Part shown: in pieces, positions 5,024-53,992 of the stretch
How the letters are laid out: every line of letters starts with the position of its first letter
Position numbering within the stretch: the first letter of the stretch is position 1
Sequence record: MK047718.1
DNA length: 64,000 nt
Strand: one strand, 5' to 3'
Source of the DNA: Escherichia phage p000y
Program-made: the position numbers and the translations under genes
The notes under the pieces: generated by a model
Told to the model about the DNA's origin: nothing
What the model saw: the letters and a program-made list of their open reading frames with translations, nothing else
Databases searched by the model: none

Positions 5024-6009
5024 TGAAAACAATTATGAAAGGCTACTTTGGTAGCCACCTTTATGGAACGTCTACTCCTGAATCTGACGTCGATTTTAAA
5101 GAAATTTATGTCCCTCATGCTCGTGATATCTTGACCGGTAACGTTAAAGAACACATGAGCAAGAACACTAACAACACTGCTTCTAAGAACACAAAAGACG
5201 ACGTGGACCATGAGTTGTATAGTCTCAAATATTTCTTTAAACTAGCTGCAGATGGTGAAACCGTCGCATTAGATATGCTTCACACCCCACAAAGTCTAGT
5301 AGTTAAATCTGATTTGCCTGATGTATGGAAGTATATTCAAGATAACAGGTCTCGTTTCTATACCACTAACATGAAATCTTATTTAGGGTATGTCCGTAAG
5401 CAAGCTTCTAAATATGGTGTCAAGGGTTCTCGACTGGCTGTTCTTCGTCAAGCCCTTAAACGTTCTAATGAATGGGGACAATACTTTGATAATGGTGCAG
5501 TAATTCGTTTATCACATATGAAGAACGTTCTGCCTGTAGGTGAATTTGCTTCATGGGTTGAAACCGAAAACGAGAAAACAGGTAAGCAAACATTCTATAA
5601 TCTGTTGGACCGTAAATTCCAAGACACGTTAACCAATAAAGAGTTCAATGCCATCCTGGTTAAACTGGAAGAGAACTATGGTGAACGTGCTCGTAAGGCG
5701 GAAGCCAACGAAGGTATTGACTGGAAAGCATTGAGTCATGCATGTCGTGGTGGACTTCAACTATTGGAAATTTATAAAACCGGTGACTTGGTTTACCCAC
5801 TTCAGGATGCTCCATTTATTCTCGATGTTAAGCTTGGTAAACATACGTTTAAAACTGTACAAGAATTCCTAGAAGATATTGTTGACCAAGTTGAACATGC
5901 GTCAGAACAAGCTGCCAAGAATGGTATGCAACAAAAAGTAGATATGAGTTTCTGGGATGATTTCCTTGAGCAAGTCTATCTCGAAAATCATAATTCTTAC
6001 TATAAATAA
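5020..6009 (+). CDS. Pol-beta-superfamily nucleotidyltransferase-fold protein, 329 aa
   Basis: GS-x(n)-DhD motif GSHLYGTSTPESDVDF plus a downstream acidic ETVALDML, the hallmark of minimal NTases; ATGA-coupled to the membrane protein. Confidence 0.5.
   Translation: MMKTIMKGYFGSHLYGTSTPESDVDFKEIYVPHARDILTGNVKEHMSKNTNNTASKNTKDDVDHELYSLKYFFKLAADGETVALDMLHTPQSLVVKSDLPDVWKYIQDNRSRFYTTNMKSYLGYVRKQASKYGVKGSRLAVLRQALKRSNEWGQYFDNGAVIRLSHMKNVLPVGEFASWVETENEKTGKQTFYNLLDRKFQDTLTNKEFNAILVKLEENYGERARKAEANEGIDWKALSHACRGGLQLLEIYKTGDLVYPLQDAPFILDVKLGKHTFKTVQEFLEDIVDQVEHASEQAAKNGMQQKVDMSFWDDFLEQVYLENHNSYYK
6001..6008 (+). promoter_or_regulatory. Candidate late promoter (TATAAATA)
   Basis: Exact TATAAATA about 33 nt upstream of the 6041 start. 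Confidence 0.35.
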
Positions 6010-7833: not shown

Positions 7834-7868
7834 GTTTACAAGGTCTATGGTTATGTTATTATAGACCT
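7834..7868 (+). promoter_or_regulatory. Early promoter with stem-loop (PeSL-like)
   Basis: GTTTAC 7834-7839, TATTAT 7857-7862; inverted repeat AGGTCTAT/ATAGACCT. Confidence 0.55.
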
Positions 7869-7889: not shown

Positions 7890-8417
7890 ATGAACGCTAA
7901 AGATATTTTCAACCTGGTAAATTATAACGACGGTAAATTTAAATCTGAAGCACAAAGCAAGTTCTTTAACGATGTTGCTTATGGTAACGAGATTACCGTG
8001 GATGGAGGTCAGATTTTCAAATCTCGCTGGAATTGGATTGTTATCATCGATTCAGTTGGAATTGTGGAAGTCTACAAAAACACTAACAAAAAACGTACAT
8101 TATTCTGGTCTCGTGAAACTAACGAGCAGTACAAAAAGGATAAAGCATCTCGTTTATCCAAAGTAACCCAGGAAGATATCGACTTCATCAAGAAAGATAT
8201 CGAGATGTACGAAAATTTAATTGCTGAAGACCAGGCAGTACTCGATAAGTTTGATGAAATTAAAGCTTCTCGTGAAATCCCTGACTTCATGAAAGAAACA
8301 GTAAACGAACGATACGCTCTCACTTCAGAACGTATTGCAAACTACACAAAACAGAAAGCAGAACGTATTAGTACTCTTCGGAAATTTGAAGAACGTTTAA
8401 AGACGGTTCACGCATAA
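7890..8417 (+). CDS. Hypothetical protein, 175 aa
   Basis: RBS GGAGG upstream; C-terminal coiled-coil-like region. Confidence 0.45.
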   Translation: MNAKDIFNLVNYNDGKFKSEAQSKFFNDVAYGNEITVDGGQIFKSRWNWIVIIDSVGIVEVYKNTNKKRTLFWSRETNEQYKKDKASRLSKVTQEDIDFIKKDIEMYENLIAEDQAVLDKFDEIKASREIPDFMKETVNERYALTSERIANYTKQKAERISTLRKFEERLKTVHA

Positions 8418-8419
8418 AC

Positions 8420-8444
8420 GCTTTACCCAAGGACGGGTTATAAT
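8420..8444 (+). promoter_or_regulatory. Middle-type promoter (MotA-box-like GCTTTA plus TATAAT)
   Basis: GCTTTA 8420-8425, 13 nt, TATAAT 8439-8444; the spacer carries the CCAAGGACGG motif. Confidence 0.45.
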
Positions 8445-8479
8445 GGTTTTGAGTTCCAATTCAATCTGAGGAAATAGTT

Positions 8480-9475
8480 ATGAGCATTACATCTGATGCG
8501 ATAAAACATGAAATTAACGGTTTATGTGCTTCACAGATTAAAGTGTGGTTTAAAGACCATAATGATCGCAGAGCGCTTAATTATGAACGAATTGCTATCC
8601 AAGTTCATCAATTACTGGTTAGTAAATTTGATTTTCATATGCCGTCTGAAATCTATACTAATCTACCGCAAGCGCTTATTAAAGCGTGTAAAGGCTACGG
8701 AAAATCAATGGCTGATGGAATCTTCAGCGCGCTGAATAAACTTAACGTTCTGTCGATGATTAACTCTAACAATATCCTGCGTAATCTAGGACGTACTGAT
8801 TTGTTCGGTCGTGAACAGTGTAAAATGCCTTTGAAATGGATTGTTGCTCATCTTAACGAGAACCAAACACGTTTTATGGCCGTAACAGCACGTTTACAAA
8901 TGGGCCTAGATCGTCAGATGAACTTTAAAACTCATCCACGTTATTCAGGTTCAACTGACTTTTATAAATGTGAGCTTCAAAAGATTGCAGGCAAAACTGT
9001 CTTAGTAGTTCGTGTAACGTTTGAAGGACGTCGTCAAGGATATTTTGACCTAATCGGCTCTGGTCTCAAACATTGTGGATTTATCGACGAAGTTGATATC
9101 AAGCGAGACGGCACTGGATACCGTATTGGGTATGTTTGTACTCTTAAAGAAGAGATTTCAGGACCAGCACCAGGACTAAAAGACGTTAGATATAAAGACG
9201 AGCTAGTTGAAGAAATAAAAGAAGTTGAATACGATATCAACCAAGAAGATGCTCTTAAAGACCTTATTGACGAACTAAACCAAGACGTTATTCCGGTTCA
9301 GAAATTTGAATCAAAACATGCTGAGCAAATCAAATACTTTGAAGCTTTGATTAACGAACTTAATGTAACTATTCAACAGACTGACGATGAAATCTCACGA
9401 TTAGCAGGCTTAAATGGTAAAAATAAAACAGAACGAGCTAATCTTATTCAAGTAGTAAAACTTCTTAAGGAATGA
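8480..9475 (+). CDS. Hypothetical protein, 331 aa, with C-terminal coiled coil
   Basis: RBS GAGGAAA upstream; heptad-like C-terminus. Confidence 0.45.
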   Translation: MSITSDAIKHEINGLCASQIKVWFKDHNDRRALNYERIAIQVHQLLVSKFDFHMPSEIYTNLPQALIKACKGYGKSMADGIFSALNKLNVLSMINSNNILRNLGRTDLFGREQCKMPLKWIVAHLNENQTRFMAVTARLQMGLDRQMNFKTHPRYSGSTDFYKCELQKIAGKTVLVVRVTFEGRRQGYFDLIGSGLKHCGFIDEVDIKRDGTGYRIGYVCTLKEEISGPAPGLKDVRYKDELVEEIKEVEYDINQEDALKDLIDELNQDVIPVQKFESKHAEQIKYFEALINELNVTIQQTDDEISRLAGLNGKNKTERANLIQVVKLLKE

Positions 9476-9504
9476 TGTACAACCAAGGATGGTTGGAGTA
9501 TAAT
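9475..9504 (+). promoter_or_regulatory. Early promoter, copy of the repeated CAACCAAGGATGGTTGGAGTATAAT cassette
   Basis: ATGTAC -35, TATAAT 9499-9504; palindromic spacer CAACCA-AGGA-TGGTTG. Confidence 0.55.
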
Positions 9505-9530
9505 AAATTTTTCAACATGAGGAATATAAA

Positions 9531-10490
9531 ATGGCTTTTATTACACGTAGAGAACTTATCAAAGAATTTACCTCGAACGCATATACCCCAGGACCTAATC
9601 CTATCCGTATGCCTGTAAAGACTCCTGAAGAGATTGAGGAAATCTGTTCATATTATGGGATTACTTCTCGTAAGTTTACTCAATTTGAATGCGTTACTAA
9701 CACACCCGTTAAAGAGTTCATTAAAAATGGTGAGTTCAGCCGTTTATTAGCCAAACAGAAACTTCGTAATTTTTGTATCGGCGGTGAAGGACAATATTTC
9801 GCTAAACAGTTCCGAAATAACCTTAACAATCTGATGGCCATTGCTTCTCGTATTCGTCCTCAAGCAATTAACATGAAACATTTGAAATATACTTATGATA
9901 AGTTAGAAATCATGGTTATCAGTGAGAATGAGTTCACTCTTACATATAAACCTAAGAATGATAACGTTGCTCGTGTATTCCACCAAGCGTTGGAAGTTTT
10001 AGGTGATAATATCCACCAGATTAAAGCGATTTATTCTCGTGAGCTTAATATTATCAACCCTATCAAGAATAAGGGCCATATCGCTATCCAGGCTCGTGTA
10101 TCTATTGGTAAAAAGGTTCCTGCGCCGTGGTGGCACAAAGACTCTGAATACTATCAAAATCTTAAAAAGGAAAATGCAACGTTTGAAGCATCGCTTACTG
10201 GGACCCCAATTGAACAGGCCGAAGTCCTAAGTGCTTATTCTACTTCGGGTAAATCAATGTTTAAAGGTTTGCCAAATGTGTGCAAACTGTCTGCAGTAAA
10301 ACTAAATGTTTCTAATGACCTTCTTCCGGCCGAAGATTACCATTACAATCAAATCAAGGCCACTATGGACCAACTGTCTGTTGAACTTGACAAAGCACAA
10401 GCTAAGCTTCGTGATGCTCAACAAGTAGTTACCAATCTCCAGTTGCAGTACTCTAAACTTTTTAACGCAATGAATGCATTAAAATCATAA
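9531..10490 (+). CDS. Hypothetical protein, 319 aa, with C-terminal coiled coil
   Basis: RBS GAGGAA upstream; C-terminus ...QAKLRDAQQVVTNLQLQYSKL. Confidence 0.45.
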   Translation: MAFITRRELIKEFTSNAYTPGPNPIRMPVKTPEEIEEICSYYGITSRKFTQFECVTNTPVKEFIKNGEFSRLLAKQKLRNFCIGGEGQYFAKQFRNNLNNLMAIASRIRPQAINMKHLKYTYDKLEIMVISENEFTLTYKPKNDNVARVFHQALEVLGDNIHQIKAIYSRELNIINPIKNKGHIAIQARVSIGKKVPAPWWHKDSEYYQNLKKENATFEASLTGTPIEQAEVLSAYSTSGKSMFKGLPNVCKLSAVKLNVSNDLLPAEDYHYNQIKATMDQLSVELDKAQAKLRDAQQVVTNLQLQYSKLFNAMNALKS

Positions 10491-10494
10491 ATCA

Positions 10495-10524
10495 GTTTAC
10501 AACCAAGGATGGTTGGAGTATAAT
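10495..10524 (+). promoter_or_regulatory. Early promoter, second copy of the repeated cassette
   Basis: GTTTACAACCAAGGATGGTTGGAGTATAAT, identical to the 52491-52520 copy. Confidence 0.55.
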
Positions 10525-10552
10525 GAATCTATCTTAACGAGAGGAAAATATT

Positions 10553-11497
10553 ATGACACGTTCACATTACATTGATTATTTTGCAGGTCTTATCGCTAAT
10601 GTTCATGCCCAACGTGCTTCTGGTTCATTAGGATTTGATGTTCCACACCGAGATGTAGTAAGTGGTATTCTTCGCGATTTTGGTACATATACCGGCCAAG
10701 AAAATCATATCTGTAAAGATACTCAAAATGCGTATTCTCATTCATTAGGGACACTGCTTCAATGGTTCAAACGTTCTCGTTTATTATCTTCTACTGTAGC
10801 TCGCGATAACATTAAAAACTTTATGAAACCGAGCTTTATTAAATCTGTGACATCTAAAACCGATTTGGTTGAATTCACTATTGTTAATGATGTTAAAAAG
10901 ACTCATTTAGCTGATTGGTTATCTACCATTCCTGAAACTAAATTTGCTGATAAATTTGCTTGTGAATTCAATAACCAAGTGAATATGCTTTTTAAACATT
11001 CTCGTAAATTATTCACTGGCGGTGATGGTCGTACAAATAAAGTTCATGTTAAAGATTGGGTTACTGCAGTATTCAAACCAACCGGTAATGGTAACGCATC
11101 ATTATCAATTGATATCCAGGTTCCTTATTACTACTCACGTAATCTCGGTACCATGAAAGCCGAAGAAATTAAGAAGCACAATAAAACCGTTCGTTCGCTG
11201 TCTTATAAACTTCGTATGATGTTACAGACTATGGATGTTGTTGAAATGTTCGACGAAACCGAAGATAACGGTTCAATGTTATTCAGTTCTCGAATTAAAA
11301 TTAAACTGAAGAACCCTAATGTGTTTAAGCCTATTAAAGAACCTAAAGCAGAAAAGGTTGATATCATGGCTGAAGAACGTGAGTACCTCAAATCTCGTCT
11401 GAAAGAAGTCGAAGCCCAGATTGCAGAACAAACTAAATCGTTAAAAGCTCTGAATGCGAAAGCGGATGGTTTACGAAATGCCATTGAGGTGTTATAA
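10553..11497 (+). CDS. Hypothetical protein, 314 aa, with C-terminal coiled coil
   Basis: RBS GAGAGGAAA upstream; C-terminus ...LKEVEAQIAEQTKSLKALNAKADGLRNAIEVL. Confidence 0.45.
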   Translation: MTRSHYIDYFAGLIANVHAQRASGSLGFDVPHRDVVSGILRDFGTYTGQENHICKDTQNAYSHSLGTLLQWFKRSRLLSSTVARDNIKNFMKPSFIKSVTSKTDLVEFTIVNDVKKTHLADWLSTIPETKFADKFACEFNNQVNMLFKHSRKLFTGGDGRTNKVHVKDWVTAVFKPTGNGNASLSIDIQVPYYYSRNLGTMKAEEIKKHNKTVRSLSYKLRMMLQTMDVVEMFDETEDNGSMLFSSRIKIKLKNPNVFKPIKEPKAEKVDIMAEEREYLKSRLKEVEAQIAEQTKSLKALNAKADGLRNAIEVL

Positions 11498-11802
11498 TGA
11501 AACTACGTCTTCTAGAGGATATTGATATGAGCACTAATCATGGCTTGGTTAAGTTTATTGACGATAGTTCAAAGATTGAATTTGTTCAGCGAGATAAAAT
11601 CCACGGTGAAGAAGAGTTCGTTCCTCCGGCATGGAACGAAATAATGAAAATGGTTGAACGACGTGAAAATGCTGCCAAATCGGCAGCAAAACATCCATGC
11701 CCGGAATGTGGAACTATCCAAGTCCAACTGGTTAACTGGACCACTGATAACTTGAAATTGAAATGCCGTAAATGCTTCCACAAATTTGAGAGAACATTAT
11801 AA
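11497..11802 (+). CDS. Zinc-ribbon protein, 101 aa
   Basis: CPEC ... CRKC pairs in the C-terminal half. Confidence 0.45.
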   Translation: MKLRLLEDIDMSTNHGLVKFIDDSSKIEFVQRDKIHGEEEFVPPAWNEIMKMVERRENAAKSAAKHPCPECGTIQVQLVNWTTDNLKLKCRKCFHKFERTL

Positions 11803-12215
11803 TGAGATATAGCCTTCGTTGTTTTATCGCAGCTTTAGTTTTTGCTATTATTCCATTCATTTGGAACAGCCAGAATACTTACATGGAAACTAAAGTAATT
11901 CCTGTGGAGGTAGTGGAATTAATCTCAGGTCAATCTACAGGAAAATATTCTAAATTAGAATTTATTGCAGTCTATAAAGATGAGCAAGGACGAGTTTTTG
12001 ACAGGCATGTATCACCATCGTTTTATACGCTTCTGAATAAAGGTGATACGATAGCTATAGAAATTCGTGAGATGGATATCAAACAAACTACTAAAGATAA
12101 CTTGATTTGGTTCTTTGGTACGGTGTTGTTGGTTTCTATCTGTATCACAGGTTTTATTACATGTATTGTATTTGGCATTGCATATTTAATCGATGAAAGG
12201 AAAAATAATGTTTAA
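11802..12215 (+). CDS. Membrane protein, 137 aa
   Basis: N-terminal and C-terminal hydrophobic helices. Confidence 0.45.
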   Translation: MRYSLRCFIAALVFAIIPFIWNSQNTYMETKVIPVEVVELISGQSTGKYSKLEFIAVYKDEQGRVFDRHVSPSFYTLLNKGDTIAIEIREMDIKQTTKDNLIWFFGTVLLVSICITGFITCIVFGIAYLIDERKNNV

Positions 12216-52490: not shown

Positions 52491-52520
52491 GTTTACAACC
52501 AAGGATGGTTGGAGTATAAT
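52491..52520 (+). promoter_or_regulatory. Early promoter, third copy of the repeated cassette
   Basis: GTTTACAACCAAGGATGGTTGGAGTATAAT, identical to the 10495-10524 copy. Confidence 0.55.
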
Positions 52521-52550
52521 CTTTCTATCTTAACCAAACAGGAAAACATT

Positions 52551-53045
52551 ATGAATATCAATACCACGGCTACTTACATCCTGAAAGATGAAAAACAAAT
52601 CAACTGGTACGGTGCTTCAGTGCGAGCTTATGAAAAGTTTTGTGAAATTTTAGGTGCCACTCAAGGTAATAGTTTCACTATTGTTAACTTCATCAAACAA
52701 GTTGAAGGCCCTTGGTTATTCTTAGAAATTAAAAATTCATATGGTATAATTTCTACTACCGCCCTTCCAAGCACCGACTTTGAACTGTTGATTGAAGAAG
52801 TAGAACCCGTTAAAGATATCTGTATTGATATGGATATCGCTTGTATGTACGGTACTCTGATTAAGCCTATTGAGCCTACTGATTTGTTGTGTAAATATGT
52901 TTCAATTCGACGCCCATTCGCTGGTCCAGTAAATGGATGGGTAACTGACCAATGGATTGAAGACGGTGTTGAACTTCTGAACGTTGTTCATGCAGGTGAT
53001 TTTAGTGTAGTTCCACGTAGTGCTGTGGTTAATATCCTTAATTAA
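52551..53045 (+). CDS. Paralogue family member 1 (C-terminal VTDQWIEDG motif), 164 aa
   Basis: ATG 52551 with RBS AGGAAA; shares its C-terminal motif with the two following ORFs. Confidence 0.45.
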   Translation: MNINTTATYILKDEKQINWYGASVRAYEKFCEILGATQGNSFTIVNFIKQVEGPWLFLEIKNSYGIISTTALPSTDFELLIEEVEPVKDICIDMDIACMYGTLIKPIEPTDLLCKYVSIRRPFAGPVNGWVTDQWIEDGVELLNVVHAGDFSVVPRSAVVNILN

Positions 53046-53047
53046 TG

Positions 53048-53077
53048 TTGTACATCCAAGGACGGATGGAGTATAAT
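53048..53077 (+). promoter_or_regulatory. Early promoter, variant of the repeated cassette
   Basis: TTGTAC ... CCAAGGACGGATGGAG TATAAT. Confidence 0.5.
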
Positions 53078-53107
53078 GAATTCAACTTAAACAAAGAGAG
53101 AGAAATT

Positions 53108-53563
53108 ATGATTACTATTGGTGAAATTAAGCGTGTATCGTCTGCATCTCGTTCTAAAGCTGCAGGTCGTCTAGTTGAAGTGGTAGGACTTCGTACTAAT
53201 GGTACTGGTCGTGTTAAAGAAGTTAAAGTTCGAATCATTCCTAGTTCTGGAAAAACTGAAACTCAGTACGCTTACGTAAGTCCTAAATTCTTGGAAACTC
53301 ATGTGAGCGCTCATTTTGCTTCTACTGAACCTAATGTACAGTTCAAATGGGCCTTGTGTAAAGGTGTTGAATTCCAGACTGATAAAGAATTTGACTTCAT
53401 CGATGAATACGGTTATCCAAGCAAAACTGATACTATGTGTGGCTTCATTAGTGACCAATGGGTTGAAGATGGTGAAAAGTTATACAATATCGTATTCTTA
53501 GGTGACTTCCGAGTTGTTAAAGAATCTGAAATCACTCGCTATGTGTCTCCTCGTAAAGCTTAA
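53108..53563 (+). CDS. Paralogue family member 2 (FISDQWVEDG motif), 151 aa
   Basis: ATG 53108 with RBS AGAGAGAGAAA. Confidence 0.45.
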   Translation: MITIGEIKRVSSASRSKAAGRLVEVVGLRTNGTGRVKEVKVRIIPSSGKTETQYAYVSPKFLETHVSAHFASTEPNVQFKWALCKGVEFQTDKEFDFIDEYGYPSKTDTMCGFISDQWVEDGEKLYNIVFLGDFRVVKESEITRYVSPRKA

Positions 53564-53572
53564 GGAATTATT

Positions 53573-53992
53573 ATGAATATTGTAAATCTCTCTACAGGTG
53601 ATTACGTATATGTATCTGTTGCTTCTCGCTCTAAAGTTGCCGGGAAGTTGGTTGAAGTTCTTTCTGTGAGTGATCCGGTTTTTGGTCGTAACCAAGTTAA
53701 AGTTCGTGATGCTAATGGTAATATTGGCTACATCTCAAGCCAGTTCATTGAGCCAGAAGAACGTGCGTTCAAATGGAAACTGTGCAGGTCAGTTTTAGTT
53801 GTAAAAGACCATGAATTTACTATTGCTGCCGCAACTGATGGGTCTCCATGGACAACGAATCAAGTCGCTGGTTTTATTTCAGACCAATGGGTTGAAGATG
53901 GTGTTAAGCTTTATAACATCGTTTTCGCCGGACAGTTCATGGTAGTTCCTGAATTCCAAATCAAAGGATATAGCCAAGCATCTTTTGCATAA
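53573..53992 (+). CDS. Paralogue family member 3 (FISDQWVEDG motif), 139 aa
   Basis: N-terminal SRSK(A/V)AGKLVEV and C-terminal GFISDQWVEDGVKLYNIVF shared with member 2. Confidence 0.45.
   Translation: MNIVNLSTGDYVYVSVASRSKVAGKLVEVLSVSDPVFGRNQVKVRDANGNIGYISSQFIEPEERAFKWKLCRSVLVVKDHEFTIAAATDGSPWTTNQVAGFISDQWVEDGVKLYNIVFAGQFMVVPEFQIKGYSQASFA

Follow-up and report, generated by a model that had tools for sequence, protein, structure and literature searches.

The window, a 64,000-nucleotide stretch of Escherichia phage p000y (sequence record MK047718.1), contains three adjacent + strand open reading frames (ORFs) of similar size between positions 8480 and 11,497. A preliminary description of the sequence had reported them, and they were found exactly at those coordinates, each with a GAGG Shine-Dalgarno sequence 7–9 nucleotides ahead of it. 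A megablast search with positions 8000–12,000 matched 510 phage records, the best at 97–98.5% identity, and the best-matching records that were checked are from Mosigvirus, the RB69-like relatives of T4. Gene order was derived by comparison with the annotated T4 genome and by BLASTP against T4 proteins. The three genes make up the nrdC.6–nrdC.5–nrdC.3 segment within the nrdC–mobD hyperplastic region of a Mosigvirus. That region is already known, and the analysis refines its annotation rather than revealing a new kind of system. The genes are listed here.

8480–9475, + strand: ORF1, NrdC.6 homologue, 331 amino acids
9531–10490, + strand: ORF2, NrdC.5 homologue, 319 amino acids
10553–11497, + strand: ORF3, NrdC.3 homologue, 314 amino acids

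Each protein was assigned to a family by database profiles and by comparison with its T4 counterpart. ORF1 matches phrog_2257 over its full length (residues 1–331, E 3.3e-127) and falls in PF26899. T4 NrdC.6 is also in phrog_2257 and is 31% identical to ORF1 over 236 residues (BLASTP, E 3.5e-18). ORF2 is a phrog_2351 protein and matches the Pfam family DUF7235 with 411 bits against a cut-off of 30 (E 4.5e-123), residues 15–318 covering profile positions 1–307. T4 NrdC.5 matches the same profile over its full length (420.6 bits, E 5e-126). The position of ORF2 is that of NrdC.5, between nrdC.6-like and nrdC.4/nrdC.3-like genes and upstream of nrdC. ORF2 resembles T4 NrdC.5 in its end-to-end DUF7235 match, array position, size, and heptad-rich C terminus, and differs from it in sequence, with 25% identity over 308 residues; tblastn at E 1e-3 did not link the two. 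ORF3 matches phrog_1435 (residues 1–314, E 8.7e-102), which holds T4 NrdC.3 and T4 NrdC.4 together, and is 57% identical to T4 NrdC.3 over 314 residues. PF26897 is precomputed for all ORF3 homologues. The T4 genes nrdC.3, nrdC.4, and nrdC.6 are "conserved hypothetical" early genes and are syntenic with the array in this phage. Pfam and NCBIfam scans of the three proteins returned DUF7235 and weak coiled-coil noise but no domain of known function, and sequence and profile searches of the PDB found no relatives.

The databases file NrdC.3/NrdC.4, NrdC.5, and NrdC.6 as separate families, whereas profile comparison joined them into one. Pairwise BLASTP among ORF1, ORF2, and ORF3 found nothing (best E 0.24–5), so the earlier remark that the three proteins have little obvious similarity holds at that level. 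Homologous loci were fetched from T4, Tequatrovirus-like IMG/VR contigs, two Dhakaviruses, and Serratia, Citrobacter, Klebsiella, Enterobacter, and Acinetobacter phages. The fetched proteins were clustered, and family alignments were built and compared with hhalign (HH-suite). A family of proteins of about 330 residues, here called K330, occupies the same locus in Klebsiella, Serratia, Citrobacter, and Enterobacter phages. In direct comparisons, the NrdC.3 family matched the NrdC.4 family with an hhalign probability of 97.5% (E 8e-12) and K330 with 78.6%; the NrdC.5 family matched K330 with 78.2% and the NrdC.4 family with 54.6%. The NrdC.6 family matched K330 with 27% over 216 colinear columns. 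Merging intermediate families gave stronger matches. A profile of NrdC.4 and K330 matched the NrdC.5 family with 97.3% (E 1.7e-11, 236 columns) and the NrdC.3 family with 98.2% (E 4e-14). The profile of NrdC.3, NrdC.4, and K330 matched the NrdC.5 family with E 3.8e-10, positions 64–224 aligning with 28–173, and the NrdC.6 family with 80.7% (E 1.3e-5, 207 columns). The NrdC.5 and K330 profile also matched the NrdC.6 family (82%, E 1e-5, positions 56–173 against 70–173). All of the controls, which were NrdC.10, NrdC.11, a neighbouring family of about 260 residues, and reversed-sequence profiles, scored 0.7% or less (E at least 0.085). A 348-residue protein of Acinetobacter phage Ac42 matched the merged profile with 60% (E 8.5e-5, 249 columns).

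The same relationships were recovered by HMMER using 806 six-frame ORFs from the window and the fetched loci, which served as decoys. The hidden Markov model (HMM) of NrdC.4 and K330 retrieved window ORF3 at 4.7e-12 and T4-type NrdC.5 proteins at about 1e-10 to 1e-8. NrdC.6 members followed at 0.015–0.19, with window ORF2 at 0.11; the first decoy came after all of these, at 0.4. The HMM of NrdC.5 and K330 placed NrdC.6 members at 5e-6 to 8e-4, ahead of every decoy. In profile comparison, the NrdC.3, NrdC.4, and NrdC.5 families and K330 are joined over nearly their full length with E values of 1e-10 to 1e-14. The NrdC.6 family probably, though not certainly, joins this superfamily as well; its matches are weaker, at E ~1e-5 and 80% probability. 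On these profiles, ORF2 and ORF3 can be read with high confidence as diverged paralogues, and ORF1 with moderate confidence as a diverged paralogue of both. The new element is the evidence that three to four adjacent families and their counterparts in other genera form one diverged paralogue family along the whole length of the proteins.

Whole-length paralogy corrects the idea, put forward in the preliminary description, of variable N-terminal domains exchanged by cassette shuffling. Most of the matching between family profiles is N-terminal or central, and an unsupervised MAFFT alignment placed the conserved motifs of all families colinearly along the whole length. The same description held that the three proteins belong together, and they do have a common C-terminal helical module ending in L..A(I/L)..LK. 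On this reading, ORF1–3, T4 nrdC.4, and the ~330-residue gene of the other genera are ancient tandem paralogues within one family of proteins of about 280–350 residues. The architecture common to the family would begin with an N-terminal helical domain (motif SRLLS..A...L.NF) and a second helix (F...L..IL...(S/A)R-L..GD.R). These would be followed by a small alpha/beta region (L...L...MD.V), a Pro-rich variable linker, and a C-terminal amphipathic helix or coiled coil carrying the common end motif. Among close relatives, the sequence varies most in the linker ahead of the C-terminal helix in ORF1 (residues 221–260) and ORF2 (211–260) and at residues ~11–35 in ORF3, rather than throughout the N-terminal domain. 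Coiled coils had been proposed for all three C termini. A crude, home-made heptad score over the last ~45–50 residues supports them in ORF2 (z 4.8, residues ~267–319) and ORF3 (z 4.7), with 0 of 300 shuffles reaching either value, and does not support one in ORF1.

The three types differ in how widely they occur. In tblastn searches of INPHARED, ORF1-type sequences were found in 741 records (~150 at 95% identity or more, the rest below 60%) and ORF3-type sequences in 653, in identity classes of at least 90%, ~75%, and ~56%. ORF2-type sequences were found in 132 records, all at 79% identity or more and all named Escherichia, Shigella, Enterobacteria, or Mosigvirus. NrdC.10 was found in 1303. 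The ORF1 family has just six proteins among 1.84 billion cluster representatives, so no deeper alignment is possible. An IMG/VR scan with the ORF3-family alignment gave six loci. Genes of ~260–350 codons lie between nrdC.10 and nrdC in all of the loci fetched from T4-like phages, and the copy number of the array varies between genera. The T4 array has four genes for ~300-residue proteins in a row (nrdC.6, nrdC.5, nrdC.4, and nrdC.3), the array in p000y has three and lacks nrdC.4, and Dhakavirus IME08 has nrdC.6, nrdC.5, and nrdC.4.

A repeated promoter cassette accompanies the array. The exact sequence CCAAGGAYGG occurs once in each upstream spacer, at 8427, 9483, and 10503. With up to one mismatch there are 10 matches in the window compared to 2.8 expected, and none of 100 shuffles reached 10. 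The cassettes and a related promoter-like sequence are the following.

8417–8446, + strand: variant cassette upstream of ORF1 (CTTTACCCAAGGACGGGTTATAAT), with the core CCAAGGACGG and TATAAT, its hairpin cut to about 4 bp
9476–9504, + strand: early-promoter cassette of ORF2, TGTACA-17-TATAAT, with the hairpin CAACCA-AGGA-TGGTTG within the spacer
10496–10524, + strand: early-promoter cassette of ORF3, TTTACA-17-TATAAT, 11 of 12 consensus positions, with the same spacer hairpin
11470–11498, + strand: promoter-like TTTACG-17-TATAAT with TG, within the last codons of ORF3 (GLRNAIEVL*)
52491–52520, + strand: cassette copy (GTTTACAACCAAGGATGGTTGGAGTATAAT) ahead of an unrelated small gene downstream of dexA
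53048–53077, + strand: cassette variant TGTACATCCAAGGACGGATGGAGTATAAT, compensated stem CATCC/GGATG, ahead of the next small gene

The cassettes ahead of ORF2 and ORF3 form a 36-nucleotide direct repeat that is 92% identical, with 27 nucleotides exact. Both have sigma-70 geometry, matching 10 and 11 of the 12 consensus positions, respectively, and no site in the region matches a sigma-70-type promoter better. The preliminary description placed a copy or variant of the cassette ahead of each gene. This was borne out, and the ORF1 copy is a variant in which only 11 nucleotides (12 by GTTTAC numbering) separate TTTACC from TATAAT, too few for a correctly spaced −35 element. The orthologous ORF1-type cassette of Dhakavirus and T4, CTTTATACCAAGGATGGTATAAT, has a 7-bp stem and a TGn extended −10. 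The near-identical copies at 52491 and 53048 show that the cassette is not specific to the three genes. The array is in a hyperplastic region, with repeated early promoters ahead of its genes.

A second tandem trio, of small paralogous genes, lies downstream of dda/dexA at 52551–53042, 53105–53560, and 53573–53989, and its first two members stand behind the cassette copies at 52491 and 53048. The last two are 42% identical (E 1e-30), with a C-terminal DQW(V/I)EDG..L.N.V..G.F.VV in common. At the other end of the ORF3 gene, its TAA stop overlaps the ATG of the nrdC.2 homologue, and the embedded promoter-like site and the conserved C-terminal peptide might constrain each other.

Experimental evidence on function comes from a single branch, that of NrdC.5. 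After a deletion that removed nrdC.5, a T4 clone could not grow on ECOR17 or on MG1655 carrying dsr1, and plasmid-borne nrdC.5 brought back T4 growth on Dsr1 cells (Srikant et al., 2022, eLife, PMC9391042). Dsr1 is a SIR2-domain protein, and a 2026 preprint reports that a TPR sensor domain common to Dsr1 and Avs7 recognizes phage major capsid proteins. The expectation of anti-defence proteins in the preliminary description finds support here for the NrdC.5 branch. Because ORF2 is in the T4 NrdC.5 family, family membership supports an anti-defence reading of ORF2. By analogy, all three genes are plausible anti-defence genes, and we infer such a role for ORF1, ORF3, and this allele of ORF2. Orthologues in the array are 25–57% identical beside conserved neighbours such as NrdC.10 (77%) and NrdC.8 (83%). 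The phage can do without these genes in the laboratory host, and their loss from evolved T4 clones came at a cost in host range (PMC9391042). Strong divergence, variable copy number, dispensability, and early promoters together fit arms-race accessory genes.

We consider it reasonably probable that the array is a set of ancient tandem paralogues in a hyperplastic region that encode early inhibitors of host defence proteins, probably oligomeric and each with a target of its own. ORF2 and ORF3 would each be transcribed from their own host-type early promoter, and the products of the three genes would be soluble, cytoplasmic, and present within the first minutes of infection. On the model of T4 NrdC.5, their most likely role would be the stoichiometric neutralization of host defence proteins through direct binding. 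Each paralogue may, through its diverged body, recognize a separate target, or a separate allele of a target, and oligomerization may come from the C-terminal helix. The proposed mechanism is of the same kind as that of DSAD1 of SPbeta-like phages, reported to be an early protein that neutralizes the SIR2-domain NADase DSR2 by binding. The likeness to DSAD1 is a functional analogy only. Should NrdC.3, NrdC.4, NrdC.5, NrdC.6, and the ~330-residue proteins belong to a single family, the finding on Dsr1 would supply a hypothesis for several hundred phage genes that lack annotation. The conserved motifs are mutagenesis targets, and the variable linker and central region are candidate specificity determinants.

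Several observations weigh against this reading. The link of the NrdC.6 family, and with it ORF1, rests on profile matches of E ~1e-5. Window ORF1 itself scored weakly in the HMMER comparison (E ~2–4) and is tied in through its family only. Because the merged profiles come from MAFFT alignments that span families, their scores might be inflated, but the controls gave no sign of this. The heptad score of ORF1 is not significant (z 0.6), though its best window is C-terminal. An own promoter for ORF1 is doubtful because its upstream cassette lacks a properly spaced −35, and ORF1 may instead be transcribed from the nrdC.8 promoter at 7835. The target of ORF2 may not be that of the T4 protein tested, given an identity of only 25% between the two proteins. 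The literature search found no experiment on any NrdC.3, NrdC.4, or NrdC.6 homologue. It found no mention of nrdC.3, nrdC.6, DUF7235, or the UniProt names of these proteins, and the single mention of nrdC.4 concerns a sequence difference between two RB phages.

The structure models are also weak. The AlphaFold2 (AF2) model of ORF1, from a five-sequence alignment, has a predicted local distance difference test score (pLDDT) of 47 and is unusable beyond secondary structure. Its low-confidence layout is an N-terminal helical region, two beta-hairpins, the variable linker at ~221–260, and C-terminal helices. The ORF3 model, from a merged alignment of 46 sequences, has a pLDDT of 64 and an unreliable middle; its confident parts are an N-terminal helical domain (residues 1–85) and one long helix (residues 273–313, pLDDT 75–86). 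A Foldseek search of viral models with the ORF3 model returned its own family first. The first hit outside that family was a 346-residue Serratia phage protein of the K330 type (E 4.9e-4, 320 columns, template modelling (TM) score 0.22), and later hits were proteins of ~320–370 residues, at least some of them from T4-like phages. With weak models and TM-scores of 0.2–0.3, the structural comparison does not demonstrate a common fold. Structure, profile, and PDB searches assigned no fold or known-function domain to the three proteins.

The weakness of the ORF1 link raises the alternative that ORF2 and ORF3 are the sole paralogues and that the resemblance of ORF1 reflects convergent helical composition. 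ORF1 has the weakest profile link, was not retrieved by the HMMs of the other families, lacks a significant heptad signal, and comes from a family with only a handful of representatives. Convergence does not readily account for the match of three independent merged profiles to the same region of the ORF1 family (~70–175) in the same motif register. The best non-self hit of the NrdC.6-family HMM was a K330 protein (E 3.5e-4), and with two HMMs the NrdC.6 proteins of Dhakavirus and T4 type outscored every decoy. ORF1 also has the array position and C-terminal end motif of the other two proteins. We regard its separate origin as unlikely.

The genes might alternatively encode early host-takeover or accessory proteins, for example modulators of a host or phage complex, with a Dsr1 effect that is indirect or confined to one branch. 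The location of the family among early genes linked to nucleotide metabolism would suit such a role, the papers that were found give no description of how NrdC.5 blocks Dsr1, and the searches yielded no fold or known-function domain. Dispensability in the laboratory host, with a host-range cost when the genes are lost, argues for defence inhibition instead, and the variable copy number and the low identity of the orthologues compared to NrdC.10 are the pattern expected of an arms race. A role apart from defence therefore seems improbable to us.

The weakest alternative, that only a C-terminal coiled-coil module is common and that unrelated N-terminal parts of ~230 residues were joined to it by recombination at the cassettes, draws on the empty pairwise BLASTP, the three separate families kept by Pfam and PHROGs, the direct hhalign comparison of the ORF2 and ORF3 families, which aligned the C termini alone (4.3%), and two short proteins (P0061 and P0062) that match just the C-terminal 60 residues of the ORF1 family, but it is very unlikely because the significant matches obtained with intermediate families are N-terminal or central and colinear, with reversed and unrelated controls at background, and because the two short proteins look like gene fragments or frameshift products and not independent modules. 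The colinear matches point to diverged tandem paralogues of one architecture.

The hairpin within the promoter spacer is a second, modest new element. Across the window, T4, Dhakavirus, and T4-like IMG/VR contigs, the cassette has the form (G)TTTAC..NNCCA-AGGA-TGGN'N'..TATAAT, and the arms around the AGGA loop change in a compensatory manner (AACCA/TGGTT, ATCCA/TGGAT, CCACA/TGTGG, AGCCA/TGGCT, TACCA/TGGTA, and CTTCA/TGAAG). Covariation was evaluated in seven variants from loci fetched irrespective of the hairpin. In these, 83.7% of cells pair compared to 61.4% in shuffles (0 of 500), there are 10 double-sided changes compared to 3.5 in shuffles (0 of 500), and slid controls pair at 21–41%. Adding six IMG/VR variants, which were chosen from a list sorted by stem length, gave similar figures. 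The RNA hairpin is short, at about −6.9 kcal/mol, and is not unusually stable relative to shuffles (z −0.7 to −2.2). Stem length did not differ significantly between promoter-spaced and other hairpin-core matches in IMG/VR (Fisher P 0.10), so the evidence for the hairpin rests on covariation among the T4-like copies. The spacer hairpin is a small, separately testable oddity of T4-type early promoters.

GGAG lies directly 3' of the spacer hairpin (..TGGTTGGAGTATAAT) at 9494–9498, 10514–10518, 52510–52514, and 53067–53071. GGAG is the recognition motif of the RegB endoribonuclease. As an idea only, read-through transcripts might be processed by RegB at the cassette.

The cassette was compared to promoter-early stem-loops (PeSLs), the mobile regulatory cassettes of T4-type phages (Arbiol et al., 2010, PMC2839356; Comeau et al., 2014, PMC4122927). 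Like PeSLs, it combines a repeated sigma-70-type early promoter with a stem-loop, is intergenic, occurs at several loci in a hyperplastic region, and flanks nonessential genes whose presence varies between related phages. In PeSLs as published, the stem-loop immediately precedes the promoter and serves as a terminator (PMC2839356; PMC4122927). The hairpin of this cassette, by contrast, has a stem of 5–7 bp and an AGGA loop, is located within the 17-nucleotide −35/−10 spacer, has no U-tract, and has a stability of about −7 kcal/mol. A terminator scan of the three upstream spacers found no + strand site. The cassette is PeSL-like in context and repetition, but it is not a PeSL by published anatomy because the stem-loop is inside the spacer rather than upstream.

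Some features hint at exchange between cassettes. A CTT/GAA patch after the −10 is common to distant copies and orthologues. The S143_2 orthologue of the ORF3 cassette differs solely in having CTT for GAA after TATAAT (window 10525–10527; 5526–5528 in the fetched locus L002), and CTT is also found in the copy at 52491 (window 52521–52523) and in the nrdC.4 cassette of IME08. The match of this patch to distant copies makes gene conversion among cassette copies possible. Gene content beside the cassettes differs between genera, and nrdC.7 lies on different sides of the array in T4 and in p000y; no breakpoint was mapped to a cassette. A broader and more tentative proposal, which we consider doubtful as a whole, is that the nrdC.3–nrdC.6 array and its ~330-residue counterparts, which occur in T4-like phages of Escherichia, Klebsiella, Serratia, Citrobacter, Enterobacter, and Acinetobacter, belong to a single, rapidly evolving family that inhibits host defence sensors early in infection. 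Each paralogue would be tuned to a different Dsr1/Avs-type or other defence protein, and copy number would be adjusted through a special subclass of T4 early promoter, with a hairpin under selection in its spacer, that acts as a recombination or regulatory cassette.

Other candidate relationships were rejected. Profile comparison excluded four further Ac42 neighbour proteins as family members. The ~260-residue protein was rejected as a counterpart of NrdC.6 (probability 1.1% or less). An origin of the ORF3 promoter by simple recombination between the T4 nrdC.4 and nrdC.3 promoters was dropped; the predicted junction spacer is 22 nucleotides.

The genes around the array in the window are the following.

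5020: nrdC.11
6405: nrdC.10
7544: nrdC.9
7890: nrdC.8
11497: nrdC.2 homologue
11802–12215: nrdC.7 homologue, predicted membrane protein, 41% identical to T4 NrdC.7
12193: nrdC, with pin and gene 49 farther along

The nrdC.7 homologue is 3' of the nrdC.2 homologue in this phage and between nrdC.8 and nrdC.6 in T4. A cassette variant after nrdC.8 precedes nrdC.7 in T4, but nrdC.6 in this phage and in Dhakavirus. In Serratia, Citrobacter, Klebsiella, and Enterobacter T4-like phages, the conserved ~260-residue gene directly precedes the ~330-residue superfamily gene, and profile comparisons detected no relation of its product to NrdC.6 or to the superfamily. Its positions in the fetched loci are the following.

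12196–12999 in L012: ~260-residue gene
11828–12610 in L013: ~260-residue gene
11266–12084 in L014: ~260-residue gene
11835–12608 in L015: ~260-residue gene

Many GenBank records call the genes of the array, along with NrdC.10 and NrdC.11, "thioredoxin," apparently from the nrdC.x gene names. A profile scan of the three ORFs found no thioredoxin similarity. ORF1 is longer than the T4 reference NrdC.6 (275 residues; NC_000866 52066–52893), which appears to be truncated by a frameshift after ...NKQIEEL. The conserved C-terminal helix FRLSGLSSKAKSEREKLIKIVDLLKS* can be read there in another frame, ending just before nrdC.5, and close relatives have an intact nrdC.6 ORF of 295 codons.

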